From Escherichia coli (GTDB lineage Bacteria > Pseudomonadota > Gammaproteobacteria > Enterobacterales > Enterobacteriaceae), in NCBI RefSeq assembly GCF_003790525.1, contig NZ_CP033635.1: a DNA stretch of 64,000 bases. One strand, given 5' to 3'. This document shows positions 15,465-58,769 of this stretch, in pieces (positions within the stretch are counted from its first letter, which is position 1; each line of letters begins with the position of its first letter). Both the position numbers and the translations under genes were made by a program. A model generated the notes under the pieces. The model saw nothing but the letters and a program-made list of their open reading frames with translations, did no database searches and was not told where the DNA came from.

Positions 15465-15541
<77 letters not shown>

Positions 15542-15575
15542 TCACCGTACTGCTTTTACTTCATCAAATTTTGAT

Positions 15576-15652
<77 letters not shown>

Positions 15653-15685
15653 TCACCGTACTGCTTTACTTCATCAAATTTTAAT

Positions 15686-15762
<77 letters not shown>

Positions 15763-20085: not shown

Positions 20086-20292
20086 AAAAAAAAAGCACCG
20101 CAATTAGGCGGTGCTACATTAATCACTATGGACAGACAGGGTAAATGTACAGGAAGTGAAAAAAGGTAGCTTTGCTACCATGGTCTGAATCGCAGACCAA
20201 TTGCAAACACAACAACACAACATCACAACCGTAAGCCAAAAGTTCACCAGAACACGCATTCCGATAAAACTTTTCGTTCCGGCTCAGGAAGT
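20086..20292 (-). ncRNA. gcvB: GcvB small regulatory RNA
   Basis: The reverse complement starts ACTTCCTGAGCCGGAACGAAAAGTTTTATCGGAATGCGTGTTCTGGTGAACTTTTGGCTTACGGTTGTGATGTTGTGTTGTTGTGTTTGCAATT (G/U-rich seed regions). It ends in the GCACCGCCTAATTGCGGTGC hairpin plus a T-run. It is divergent from gcvA. Confidence 0.93.
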
Positions 20293-38520: not shown

Positions 38521-38877
38521 GAGTCAGACAACGAAGTGAACATCAGGATGATGACACTTCTGAAGGACACACCAGGATGGTGTTTCAGGGAAAGGCTTCT
38601 GGATGAAGCGAAGAGGATGACGCAGGACGCGTTAAAGGACACCTCCAGGATGGAGAATGAGAACCGGTCAGGATGATTCGGTGGGTCAGGAAGGCCAGGA
38701 ACACTTCAGGATGAAGTATCACATCGGGGTGGTGTGAGCAGGAAGCAATAGTTCAGGATGAACGATTGGTCGCAAGGCCAGAGGAAAAGTTGTCAAGGAT
38801 GAGCAGGGAGCAACAAAAGTAGCTGGAATGCTGCGAAACGAACCGGGAGCACTGTGAATACAGTGCTCCCTTTTTTT
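38521..38877 (+). ncRNA. csrB: CsrB sRNA (CsrA-sequestering RNA)
   Basis: It starts GAGTCAGACAACGAAGTGAACATCAGGATGATGAC. I count about 20 GGA triplets, mostly in CAGGAUG/AAGGAC-type motifs. It ends in the gggagcactgtgaatacagtgctccc hairpin plus TTTTTTT. It lies between syd and yqcC. Confidence 0.95.
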
Positions 38878-38922
38878 ATTCCTGCTATCCTTCGCGGCAG
38901 TTTTTCTTATTGAGGTTGCTTT

Positions 38923-55078: not shown

Positions 55079-56392
<1,314 letters not shown>

Positions 56393-56420
56393 GTCTGACT
56401 TTATCTGATTTAAAAATGCC

Positions 56421-56433
56421 AGCCTTCGGGCTG
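56421..56433. repeat. IS4 target-site duplication, left copy
   Basis: agccttcgggctg (14 bp if the preceding c at 56420 is included) is repeated at 57861-57873. Confidence 0.9.
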
Positions 56434-56437
56434 TAAT

Positions 56438-56470
56438 GCCAGTCAGTTAAGCAACTGACTGGCTCTTTTT
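56438..56470 (+). terminator. Inward-facing intrinsic terminator inside the left IS4 end
   Basis: gccagtcagtt-aagc-aactgactggc (11-bp stem) followed by tcTTTTT on the plus strand. It overlaps the insG stop codon. Confidence 0.65.
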
Positions 56471-57775
56471 CGGGGCTGTGGGGTATTTCCAGGGCCTCTC
56501 CTTTACCACTCTCGGGAAGGCCCTTTCCCTTCTTGTCGGTAATTTCACAAGTTGTCCCATACTTGCAAGATCGCGCATCAGCTCCGGTATACGTCCCGGT
56601 GAAGCGCCCTGCAATGTCATCAGCATTCTCATCACCATTCCACATGATTCTGAGAAACTCAGTTGATTCGGCCAGTAACCTTTCAGATATTCCGCCATTT
56701 TAATCATCTGATATCTCACCAGATTATAAGCCAGTAAGACACCCCACAGCTCTTGCTCCACAAGCTCCGGTTTTTTACTTCTCAGCGTCAGCCTGCTCAG
56801 TTGCATCGTCTGTTTTATCTCCCTGTATCCCAGTTCGATTTCCCAGCGATGACTGTACAGATCCGCCATTTCTCCTCCGGGGAAGCGCATGGCGTCCGTC
56901 ATCGACGTCAGCAGATGGCAGACTTTTCCTTTGCGCGTCACGGTCAGCAGGCGGGCTGTCACTTCATTTCCCAGTCCCGGCCACTTTTTTCGTGCCTGCG
57001 GGCTGGTTTTCAGCTTCACCAGATGATCGCCTTTACCCAGTTTTCTGATCTCTTCATATTGCGCTCCCTTTCTGAGAGGTATCATCCAGTGGCGGTGTTC
57101 TCCCGCCAGGCTCCAGGCATTTAACAGTCCCAGTGAGTAATAACCTTTATCCATTAACGTCAGAGTGTTATCGCCGGTTTGTTCTATAAGTTGCTCAGCA
57201 AGCTCATTTTCGCTGTTCTTCATCGTGCCGAAGGCTGCAGCCGTCAGCAGATGGCTGGTCAGTTCCATCTGGCAGACCATTTTGACCTGCGGGTAGAGCG
57301 CCGGGTTCCCGGCATGTGTCTGGCGGGGGAAGGCTGCATCGTTCTCTGGTGTATCCGGTGTGCGCCAGAACACACCATCGATGGCCAGCAGGGTCAGGCC
57401 GCACCAGTGCGGATGCGGCGTGGCGTTATGCCAGAGCTGCGCTGTTTTCGTGAACACGCGGCGGACAGCCTCACTTCCCAGGCGCTGGCGGGCCTGAATA
57501 ACGGCACTGGGGGCAACGAAGGGGCGATTGCCCGGCAGCATGATGTCCAGGCGATTCACAATCTGGTGAAGAGGTTCTTTACGCTCAAGCGCCATGCCAA
57601 CAATACACCAGACCATCATTTCGAGGGGAAGACGGCGCTTGCGTAGCGTTACAGTACCTGATTCGGCAAGGCAACGAGAGATGAGTTCGGGGTCGAGGTA
57701 ATCCCCCAGAGAAGTCAGTGGGTTACGCAGAGAATCGTAACGGGATACCAGATCAAGAGCCTGTCCAATGTGCAT
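56447..57775 (-). CDS. insG: IS4 transposase (DDE, IS4 family)
   Basis: ORF 56447..57793. From ATG 57775 the 442-aa product [40 protein letters not shown]... is recognised as IS4 InsG. The upstream 6 codons are encoded by a terminator hairpin and T-run. Confidence 0.95.
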
Positions 57776-57810
57776 AAAAAAATCCGGAAACAAGTGAGCG
57801 TTTCCGGATT
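57776..57810 (-). terminator. Inward-facing intrinsic terminator inside the right IS4 end, immediately upstream of the transposase ATG
   Basis: The minus strand reads aatccggaaa-cgctcacttg-tttccggatt (10-bp stem) followed by TTTTTTT and then ATG 57775. Confidence 0.65.
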
Positions 57811-57860
57811 CTTACACAGCCACTGGATCGGTCAACTGATCCTTAACTGATCGGCATTAC

Positions 57861-57873
57861 AGCCTTCGGGCTG
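57861..57873. repeat. IS4 target-site duplication, right copy
   Basis: agccttcgggctg. Removing IS4 and one repeat copy restores aaaaatgccagccttcgggctggcattttt, a perfect bidirectional terminator. Confidence 0.9.
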
Positions 57874-57891
57874 GCATTTTTTATGGCTGAG

Positions 57892-58764
57892 TTACCAGCG
57901 GCCAGACGCGCCGCCACCGCCAGAAGAACCGCCACCTCCGTTAAATCCGCCGCCAGTTGAGCCGCCACCAGAACCGCCGCTGTCTGAATGATAACTTCTA
58001 CCTGATGCTTTTTTCTGTGGGACACATAACCAGGTAAAGACCATAATGATGGTGAAAGCAAAAAAGAAGGAAAATACAGCAATGGAAAAAGTTTGATCGG
58101 AGAACAGGAATAAATCTATAAGATAGACTGTTGAAATACAAACACTGCTTTTAAATGCCCGACAAAAATTATTGCCTTGATGAAAAAACCAGAAAGGGAA
58201 GAACATCACTGCAAATACCCAAAAAATAGCAAAGTAGTAATGATCACTGGAAGACGCTGATTCACTTTCTGAAGGATTAGACGAATATTGGTGTTGTGAA
58301 GTGAGTTGGTTATTCAAAGCGATTATAGCTAATTCTAATCCCTTAGCTAATTTTTGTTTTTTAAAGGCGGGTATCATGATGCTACGGATGATATTGCCAG
58401 CCAGAGCATCGGTTACCTTTTCTTCCAGCCCATAACCTACCTGGATGCGGACAGTACGATCCGACCAGGCAACAATGATCAGTATCCCATCATTACGTTT
58501 GGCATCTCCTAAACGCCAATTGTCAAAAACTCTTGTAGCATATTGTTCAATAGAATCGTCTCCGGTGGATGGCACTATTAATACAGCGACCTGTGCCCGT
58601 GTTTTTTGTGTAATATCCTGCAGCTGTTGTGTTAGTGATTGTTGTTCAGACGTGCTTAAGGTACCAGTAATATCGGTCACCTGTTGGCGCAGCTCCGGCA
58701 CAGCAATTTGCTGGGCAAGCACAGGAAGGCACCATAAAGTGAGTAGAAAAAGGATTATACGCAT
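57892..58764 (-). CDS. ygcG: TPM-domain membrane protein YgcG (third TPM paralogue of the module)
   Basis: ORF 57892..58776 (TTG). ATG 58764 gives 290 aa starting [19 protein letters not shown] (signal peptide). The TPM-like core is TDITGTLS...[29 protein letters not shown]...[20 protein letters not shown]. It is followed by TM segments and a Gly-rich tail [15 protein letters not shown]. Recognised as K-12 YgcG. Confidence 0.9.
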
Positions 58765-58769
58765 AACGA

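Follow-up and report, generated by a model that had tools for sequence, protein, structure and literature searches.

The window examined here, a 64-kb stretch of Escherichia coli DNA, carries a copy of the insertion sequence (IS) IS4 between two convergent genes, eno (enolase) and a ygcG-like gene whose product contains a TPM domain (Pfam TPM_phosphatase, 9e-38). The sequence from 56300 to 58000 was read and then checked by script; the coordinates of the features are collected in Table 1. IS4 lies within the terminator that both genes share. It was very probably inserted there by a 14-bp staggered cut into a terminator of the kind the element prefers, and this terminator is a recurrent hot spot.

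The element is complete, as the first-pass annotation had described it: the sequence check returned a full-length IS4 of 1426 bp with an intact transposase of 442 aa, located in the eno/ygcG-like terminator. Both ends begin with TAATGCC, and the terminal inverted repeats distal (IRL) and proximal (IRR) to the transposase start match at 16 of 18 positions. Within the window, matches to the 18-mer terminal repeat are confined to the two IS4 ends (0.01 matches expected by chance). The form of the transposase predicted by the Prokaryotic Genome Annotation Pipeline (PGAP) has 448 aa and starts with TTG at 57793. The protein contains the domains PF13006 Nterm_IS4 (3e-33) and PF01609 DDE_Tnp_1 (9e-32). 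The Y(2)R(3)E(6)K motif is the signature of true IS4-family transposases (PMC2266710) and is visible in the translation, as a motif-level match. At the DNA level, 99.6% of the 1426 bp agree with the insG copies found in K-12 and B strains, copies in other genomes are 100% identical, and the RefSeq label in the identical region of E. coli SMS-3-5 reads 'IS4-like element IS4 family transposase'. The element is IS4 (IS4 family, IS4 subgroup, DDE transposase), and the family assignment is unambiguous. From its sequence it is a normal, intact and probably transposition-competent copy. SMS-3-5 carries about four IS4 copies besides the one at eno (five places matched the junction query, one of them being the junction), and in laboratory populations of K-12 IS4 was found to be active (PMC8763031).

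The insertion is flanked by an exact direct repeat, CAGCCTTCGGGCTG. The first-pass annotation had given the duplication as 13-14 bp; that it is exact was borne out, and its length is 14 bp and not 13 bp. Deletion of IS4 and one repeat copy restores AAAAATGCCAGCCTTCGGGCTGGCATTTTTT, which can be written as AAAAA-TGCCAGCCTTCGGGCTGGCA-TTTTTT with a spacer of 20 nt; by direct counting the duplication is centred within this N20. The restored site folds into a 13-bp stem with a TTCG tetraloop (-20.7 kcal/mol, z = -4.65 against shuffled sequences) and provides a U-tract on both strands (A5 at 56412-56416 and T6 at 57877-57882). The restored intergenic region between the eno stop at 56392 and the stop codon of the TPM-domain gene at 57892-57894 measures 59 nt. 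The reconstruction was supported by genomes without the IS: the empty junction, reconstructed over 261 nt, is uninterrupted in 4880 of 5426 complete E. coli genomes, and the intergenic sequence of strain Nissle 1917 equals the reconstructed hairpin base for base. As these IS-free genomes carry the reconstructed junction, the duplicated segment is a single-copy site in them. Judged by sequence and predicted fold, the restored target is the bidirectional intrinsic (Rho-independent) terminator of the convergent eno and TPM-domain genes. Cuts staggered by 14 bp and placed symmetrically about the dyad axis of this shared terminator would account for the inserted state.

Table 1. Features of the eno-IS4 region, of a deleted IS4 derivative and of the remaining window (coordinates are those of the 64-kb window unless a locus is named).
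Feature	Coordinates	Strand	Basis or remark
eno (enolase) coding sequence, 432 aa, stop codon 56390-56392	55094-56392	+	open reading frame (ORF); RefSeq eno in SMS-3-5
Original terminator, left outer part: A-run 56412-56416 and outer stem TGC	56412-56419		sequence; IS-free genomes
Target-site duplication copy 1, CAGCCTTCGGGCTG	56420-56433		loop and inner 5 bp of each stem arm
IS4, full length, 1426 bp	56434-57859		transposase on minus strand; script check of ends and identity search
IRL, terminal inverted repeat distal to transposase start	56434-56451	+	TAATGCCAGTCAGTTAAG
Inward-facing terminator-like module at IRL	56438-56470	+	11-bp stem GCCAGTCAGTT/AACTGACTGGC, 4-nt loop, TCTTTTT
IS4 transposase ORF, 442 aa, open, ATG at 57775	57775-56447	minus	ORF list
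Hairpin AATCCGGAAAC/GTTTCCGGATT and U7	57776-57813	minus	abuts transposase ATG; faces transcription from the IRR side
Predicted promoter-like site: TTGACC, 16 nt, TG-extended AAGAAT	57808-57835	minus	consensus scan, 9/12
IRR, terminal inverted repeat proximal to transposase start	57859-57842	minus	TAATGCCGATCAGTTAAG
Target-site duplication copy 2, CAGCCTTCGGGCTG	57860-57873		exact 14-bp match to copy 1
Original terminator, right outer part: GCA and T-run 57877-57882	57874-57882		sequence; IS-free genomes
TPM-domain gene (ygcG-like), convergent with eno, first of three paralogs	57892-58764	minus	ORF; RefSeq
1145-bp IS4 derivative	L123 492-1636; L144 3935-5079; L147 3199-4343; L176, L194, L202; H107-H112		H107-H112 UTI89-like
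Three tandem tRNA genes, identical Rfam scores, 110-bp period	15468-15762		ordinary feature of the region
GcvB small RNA	20087-20292		ordinary feature of the region
CsrB small RNA	38521-38880		ordinary feature of the region

The target preference of IS4 is described as the pseudo-palindromic AAA-N20-TTT, deduced from the resident copy, from galT and from the pheST attenuator. Work by Habermann in 1979, Klaer in 1981 and Mayaux in 1984 reportedly gave this motif together with duplications of 11-13 bp. For a broader target profile, flanks were gathered in two ways. A scan of one genome per species with the 18-bp terminal repeat matched no fewer than 120 loci (Pseudomonas, Vibrio, Acinetobacter, Pantoea, Kosakonia and others) and yielded 125 unique flanks. 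Metagenome contigs, scanned with a 30-nt pattern that singles out IS4 ends of the E. coli type, yielded 87 unique flanks; random positions from the same loci served as controls. Read toward the IS end, both flank sets show A at 50-86% over positions -23 to -16 with a peak at -18, followed by a G+C-rich stretch from -15 to -8, a mixed, loop-like stretch from -7 to -5 and again G/C-rich positions from -4 to -1, where in the E. coli IS4 flanks G reaches 86% at -1. AAAA at the right distance is found in 61% of the flanks compared with 6-8% of the controls, and an A-run together with a perfect hairpin abutting the junction in 26-33% compared with 0.3-0.4%. Among 18 distinct sites that could be restored from both ends, 15 fold with -10 kcal/mol or less into an A-run, a GC stem, a tetraloop and a T-run. 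An ORF of at least 100 aa that points at the IS and ends at most 120 nt upstream (median 37 nt) accompanies 74% of the genome flanks and 50% of the metagenome flanks (controls: 16% and 13%, respectively). A log-odds matrix was derived from 82 flanks of E. coli IS4, none of them from the eno site. When it was applied symmetrically to the restored window, the eno terminator came out on top of the 312,560 combinations of position and duplication, with a score of 22.0 bits (window mean -21, sd 9). That hairpin terminators might be a preferred IS4 target was already suggested in the first-pass annotation; with the profile of about 210 flanks, the folds of the restored sites, the converging ORF ends and the matrix rank, such a preference of IS4 and of the relatives sharing its termini is strongly supported by the comparative sequence data.

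In mechanistic terms, the eno terminator would have been hit because it is a near-ideal IS4 target, composed of an A-tract, a G+C-rich dyad of about 20 bp and a T-tract, i.e., AAA-N20-TTT. At the DNA level, bidirectional Rho-independent terminators have this same signature, and the eno site is therefore a recurrent hot spot in both orientations. A crude regular expression, AAA-N(18-22)-TTT centred on the duplication, recovers 9 of the 18 restored sites, as the A/T runs allow several registers. It was also considered that the IS4 end mimics the eno target; the AATGCCAG shared between them is not general in the target profile, and the idea was rejected. The next-best matrix targets of the window, both unoccupied here, are likewise terminator-like hairpins: aaaaaccggCTCTGTCAGGAGccggttt near gudD/barA (45022 in restored coordinates) and aaaacatttACCCCAAAGGGGctatttt downstream of mazG (53227 in restored coordinates).

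The eno site itself was hit repeatedly. The left junction, queried with 150 nt from the eno side and 150 nt from the IRL side, was matched by 77 of the 5426 complete E. coli genomes (orientation A). A chimeric query of the eno flank and IRR, which represents the opposite orientation at the same nucleotide (orientation B), was matched by 84 of 5426, IAI39 and CE10 included. Both orientations together, IS4 occupies the eno site in 161 of the 5426 genomes (3.0%). IS4 is present in 2686 genomes at about 5,500 places, and the eno-site copies make up about 3% of these places. The first-pass annotation had regarded the copy as a second natural example of a terminator insertion after the pheST case, and this did not hold, given these 161 genomes and the dozens of other terminators that hold IS4 or relatives with the same termini. 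The junctions sampled differ from one another. In orientation A, the window has a 14-bp duplication with the flank GGCATTTTTTATGGCTG, the loci L246 and L247 a 14-bp duplication with the flank GGCGTTTTTTATGGTTG, and L122 from an O25:H4 strain a shorter duplication of 13 bp; in orientation B, L244 and L245 have a 14-bp duplication with the loop allele CTCC in both repeat copies, and L243 (IAI39) has no matching repeat, and DNA from the corA side replaces the far flank. Eno-site flanks joined to either IS end were also found in gut metagenomes (L142, L166, L177, L195 and L242). Because duplication lengths, loop alleles, flanks and orientations differ among the sampled junctions, these sequences point to four or more independent transposition events within the same few nucleotides. 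The opposite-orientation junctions were considered as artefacts of inversion between IS4 copies; this was rejected, as inversion leaves the IS end abutting eno unchanged, and it is also contradicted by the intact sites with both flanks in L244 and L245.

Concerning the age of the insertion, the last 25 kb of the window are 100% identical to E. coli SMS-3-5 (NC_010498.1, 2982287-3007286), and the same 25 kb are about 100% identical in at least 14 further genomes listed, which originate from humans, chickens, river water and a pangolin. With at least 15 genomes about 100% identical over 25 kb, the insertion is lineage-fixed and not private to one strain: it is fixed in a widespread SMS-3-5-like clone and young in evolutionary terms. 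The earlier judgement that it is probably recent therefore stands on the evolutionary scale and fails in the sense of a strain-private event; the unmutated repeat on which it was based is perfect in every independent event sampled at the eno site, the one in the window included. In IAI39 (NC_011750.1, 3331008-3336507), a truncated phosphodiester glycosidase gene, ysgD and corA follow beyond IS4 in place of the TPM-domain gene, and the far flank is the half-site of another target, which indicates that IS4 copies recombined with one another and caused a large rearrangement. Full-length copies with unmatched half-sites and no direct repeat were seen in L174, L234, L123, L065, L080 and L112, which suggests recombination between copies or adjacent deletions.

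Both IS4 ends carry structures that may bear on the transcription of the interrupted locus. The module at IRL was found by a terminator scan, starts 4 nt after the duplicated segment, lies 46-78 nt past the eno stop codon and folds with -18.7 kcal/mol (z = -4.8). An IRL-type hairpin with T-run, built on the terminal repeat, was found at 27 distinct ends of relatives, with G-U and compensatory variants in which GCCGGTCAG pairs with CTGACCGGC or CTGACTGGC. At the other end, the hairpin abutting the transposase ATG folds with -18.8 kcal/mol (z = -5.6). Its outer parts AAAATCCG and CGGATTTTTTTATG are kept on both sides of a variable inner stem in 14 relatives from Pseudomonas, Vibrio, Tolumonas, Aeromonas and others, and compensatory double changes affect 9 of 13 predicted pairs. 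Homologues of this hairpin with its U-run were seen in L013, L017, L019, L020, L026, L027, L065, L080, L103 and L105. The outer AAAATCCG/CGGATTTT part overlaps a -10-like sequence, the -10 element of the predicted transposase promoter lying across the 5' arm of the hairpin. Furthermore, each duplicated half-site together with the outer T-run received a weak outward-facing terminator-like score in the scan, copy 1 with GCATTTTT on the minus strand and copy 2 with GCATTTTTTA on the plus strand. According to these predictions, transcripts reading through from eno would end at the IRL hairpin, some 30 nt past the original terminator, and those from the TPM-domain gene at the hairpin and U7 just before the transposase ATG. 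A transposase transcript from the element's own promoter would start inside the guarding hairpin and escape it, and in external read-through transcripts either termination would occur or the ribosome-binding site at the transposase start would be occluded. Thus eno probably receives a replacement terminator from the IS4 end, and from the inward-facing hairpin with U-run at each end we infer that IS4 is transcriptionally almost neutral. Among the flanks no orientation bias relative to the converging ORFs was observed, and the eno site itself is occupied 77 versus 84 times, which fits an element insulated on both sides.

Taken further, these features suggest that IS4 and the gammaproteobacterial relatives with the termini TAATGCCRRTCAGTTAAG may be dedicated hunters of terminators and repetitive extragenic palindromic (REP) sequences that perform a 'terminator swap', in which integration at the dyad would be combined with an inward-facing hairpin and U-run at each end and an outward-facing mini-terminator from each duplicated half-site. 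This is a tentative proposal, for which the case comes close to balanced and falls somewhat short of it. An adaptation of this kind would be coherent with all comparative sequence data obtained here and may already be partly known; a general literature search for IS elements and terminators returned only IS186-associated terminators, which are unrelated here.

Several observations weigh against the interpretation of targeted terminator insertion with transcriptional insulation. With 14 bp, the duplication exceeds by one base the range of 11-13 bp given for IS4. Only about a third to half of the flanks (32-49%) pass a strict hairpin test that demands a perfectly paired stem of 4 bp or more directly at the junction, so that terminator-likeness is a strong tendency and not a rule. 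The resident copy of the K-12 and B strains, which adjoins nanX, restores to AAATAGGCATCTTGGTTCTGGTGTTT, an AAA-N20-TTT site with a 12-bp duplication and without any palindrome (0.0 kcal/mol). Finally, the transposase promoter is a weak consensus match (9/12), and the predicted termination of eno and TPM-gene read-through by the IS-borne hairpins, argued from sequence, folding energy and covariation, is the weakest link. As to the first point, duplications vary, with 14 bp in the window, 13 bp at the same site in L122 and 10-14 bp (mode 12) in a survey of elements with both ends present; the 14-bp duplication would then be the upper end of the natural range and not call for a different mechanism.

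The nanX site is also of importance for the question of what the transposase recognizes. It could capture the hairpin itself, as an extruded cruciform or as single-stranded DNA on the lagging strand or behind RNA polymerase. The strong hairpins formed by 15 of the 18 restored targets would agree with such structure-specific recognition, as would Pseudomonas MITE-like relatives (MITE: miniature inverted-repeat transposable element) that sit in REP palindromes without A/T tracts, the palindrome being the common feature. However, the nanX site was used without any self-complementarity, the A-tract (61% of flanks) is a more consistent feature than the hairpin, and by analogy with Tn5 and Tn10 the transposases of the IS4 family would capture duplex targets. 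Structure-specific recognition is therefore unlikely, although it is the most serious of the competing explanations. Recognition of two-fold symmetric duplex DNA appears most likely, because a non-palindromic site was used and the A-tract is the most consistent feature, and with duplex recognition terminators would be hit since their DNA embodies the two-fold symmetry.

It was further considered whether the insertion deprives eno of its terminator, with long read-through transcripts, a change in eno mRNA stability and transcription of the transposase gene in sense or antisense direction as consequences. The 13-bp stem is indeed reduced to a 5-bp remnant without U-run on the eno side. The claim of the first-pass annotation that IS4 separates eno from its terminator is thus literally true, but the functional effect is probably small, as the IS4 end supplies an 11-bp hairpin with UCUUUUU and the other end a second conserved hairpin with U7: a comparable hairpin and U-run follows 4 nt further on (-18.7 compared with -20.7 kcal/mol) and is conserved among relatives. 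The near-equal numbers of the two orientations, with no overall bias, argue that neither is costly, and the insertion is fixed in a successful, widespread lineage. A loss of termination at eno is accordingly improbable.

Selection offers another account of the pattern, according to which IS4 inserts almost at random and only harmless copies, such as those at the ends of convergent genes, persist. Purifying selection certainly removes genic insertions, and 31-36% of the flanks look coding compared with 64-70% of the controls. Yet selection lacks nucleotide precision, while the cuts are dyad-symmetric and the profile has its A peak at -18 and its G of 86% at -1, and it does not explain why independent events fall on identical positions and leave the intergenic DNA outside the hairpin unused. 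The classical galT insertions of IS4 are reported to fall on a single site. In laboratory evolution of K-12, greA::IS4 arose recurrently and the reconstructed allele gave no growth benefit (PMC8763031), which points to site preference; instead of being selected, the greA insertions may mark a further IS4 hot spot. Survivorship as the main cause thus appears quite improbable. Even less probable is a single ancestral insertion that spread by descent and homologous recombination, with recombination producing the flank variety. The identity of at least 15 genomes to the window over 25 kb shows that much of the 77 represents clonal descent, and L246 and L247 differ from the window in flank alleles only, which recombination could produce. 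Recombination cannot, however, flip the element between the same repeats, so that the 84 opposite-orientation genomes need at least one further transposition, and the 13-bp duplication of L122 and the CTCC allele in both copies of L244 and L245 each call for an event of their own. A single chance insertion in a coincidental hairpin is scarcely credible, for although any one insertion must land somewhere and intergenic ones are most easily tolerated, 161 genomes carry IS4 at this same nucleotide, in one orientation or the other and with several junction variants, the site is the top hit in 62.6 kb for a matrix trained independently, and about 210 other flanks show the same profile.

Several known systems invite comparison. 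The family's type element, IS4 (insG; ISfinder IS4) of E. coli K-12, is said to have been described by Klaer et al. in 1981 and shares with the window copy the length of 1426 bp, the 16/18 repeats, the 442-aa transposase, both domains and the YREK motif; the two copies differ in their sites, namely the non-palindromic AAA-N20-TTT with a 12-bp duplication at nanX and a true terminator hairpin with 14 bp in the window. The insertion in the attenuator terminator of pheS,T, reportedly described by Mayaux et al. in 1984, lies within a Rho-independent stem-loop as does the eno insertion. The former was a laboratory mutant selected for pheST derepression, whereas the latter is natural, lineage-fixed, recurrent and located in a 3'-end terminator between convergent genes. 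IS231A, which belongs to the same IS family, targets a dyad-symmetric G/C core, GGG-N5-CCC, with duplications of 10-12 bp, and the character of the flanking DNA matters to its target choice; its core consensus differs from that of IS4, and a link to terminators is not described for it. A study of IS231A target specificity (Hallet et al., 1994) is among the references of PMC2266710.

Other elements use hairpins or REP sequences as targets, such as IS1397 and ISKpn1 (IS3 family), IS621 (IS110 family) and ISPpu9/ISPpu10, and group IIC introns home after terminators. Like IS4, these elements find safe places to land in extragenic palindromes or terminators, but they rely on other transposase families or chemistries, group IIC introns being retroelements that recognize the stem-loop as single-stranded DNA, and IS4 enters the centre of the stem-loop and duplicates it. 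The transposase genes of IS10 and IS50 are shielded from external read-through by 'fold-back inhibition'. The arrangement in IS4 would be similar, in that the transposase-proximal structure forms only in transcripts from outside and the own promoter starts inside it; unlike in IS10 and IS50, a predicted full intrinsic terminator (hairpin and U7) abuts the ATG and a second one is found at the other end.

The 18-bp terminal repeat has a wide distribution that includes Pseudomonas, Vibrio, Acinetobacter, Pantoea and others, with many single ends in L002-L121. In Pseudomonas, MITE-like pairs of ends lie 134-204 bp apart (L005 950-1106, L053 4034-4167, L079 7088-7291), inserted in REP-like palindromes (..GCGGGCAAGCCCGCTCCCACA..) with the 10-bp duplication GGGCAAGCCC. 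An internally deleted derivative of 1145 bp, about 98% identical to IS4 and with IRL-type bases in both terminal repeats, sits in one particular terminator (..AAACGGCCCCTTCTGGGGCCGTTTTTT..) in many gut metagenomes and some E. coli (e.g., UTI89). In L144 and L147 it is surrounded by a normal direct repeat. In L176 (4012-5156) and L228 (317-1460) the duplication loops are inverted, with CCCCAGAAGGGG or CCCCATAAGGGG on the left and CCCCTTCTGGGG on the right, which could be due to loop inversion within the palindrome or to recombination between oppositely oriented copies. Next to IS4, the window contains three tandem TPM-domain paralogs (294, 382 and 307 aa), all with Gly/Ser-rich C-terminal tails, and a LemA-family gene between IS4 and queE (57892-61442); in L122, L245 and L247 a single TPM-domain gene (ygcG) is followed by queE. 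The third paralog (59933-60856) is a PGAP pseudogene in SMS-3-5 and its ORF is open in the window.

The feature is a well-documented instance of known IS4 specificity and no new kind of element. For the locus itself it has little significance, as IS4 behaves as known and eno expression is probably unaffected. As a precise hot spot, with IS4 present in 3% of the complete E. coli genomes, the eno site is usable as a lineage marker, and the copy it holds is a substrate for IS4-mediated rearrangement, as in IAI39. For the family, the old three-site consensus AAA-N20-TTT is extended to a profile of about 210 flanks that equates the IS4 target with bidirectional intrinsic terminators, and annotators should expect IS4-like elements and MITEs within terminators and REPs. 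If the terminator swap is true, it would keep the flanking host genes terminated and the transposase insulated from read-through, and the IS4 lineage would by design be a near-neutral commensal of the genome; its broad spread and the existence of MITE derivatives would thereby be explained. The suggested design principle is that terminator-targeting elements carry replacement terminators and a read-through-proof transposase start.

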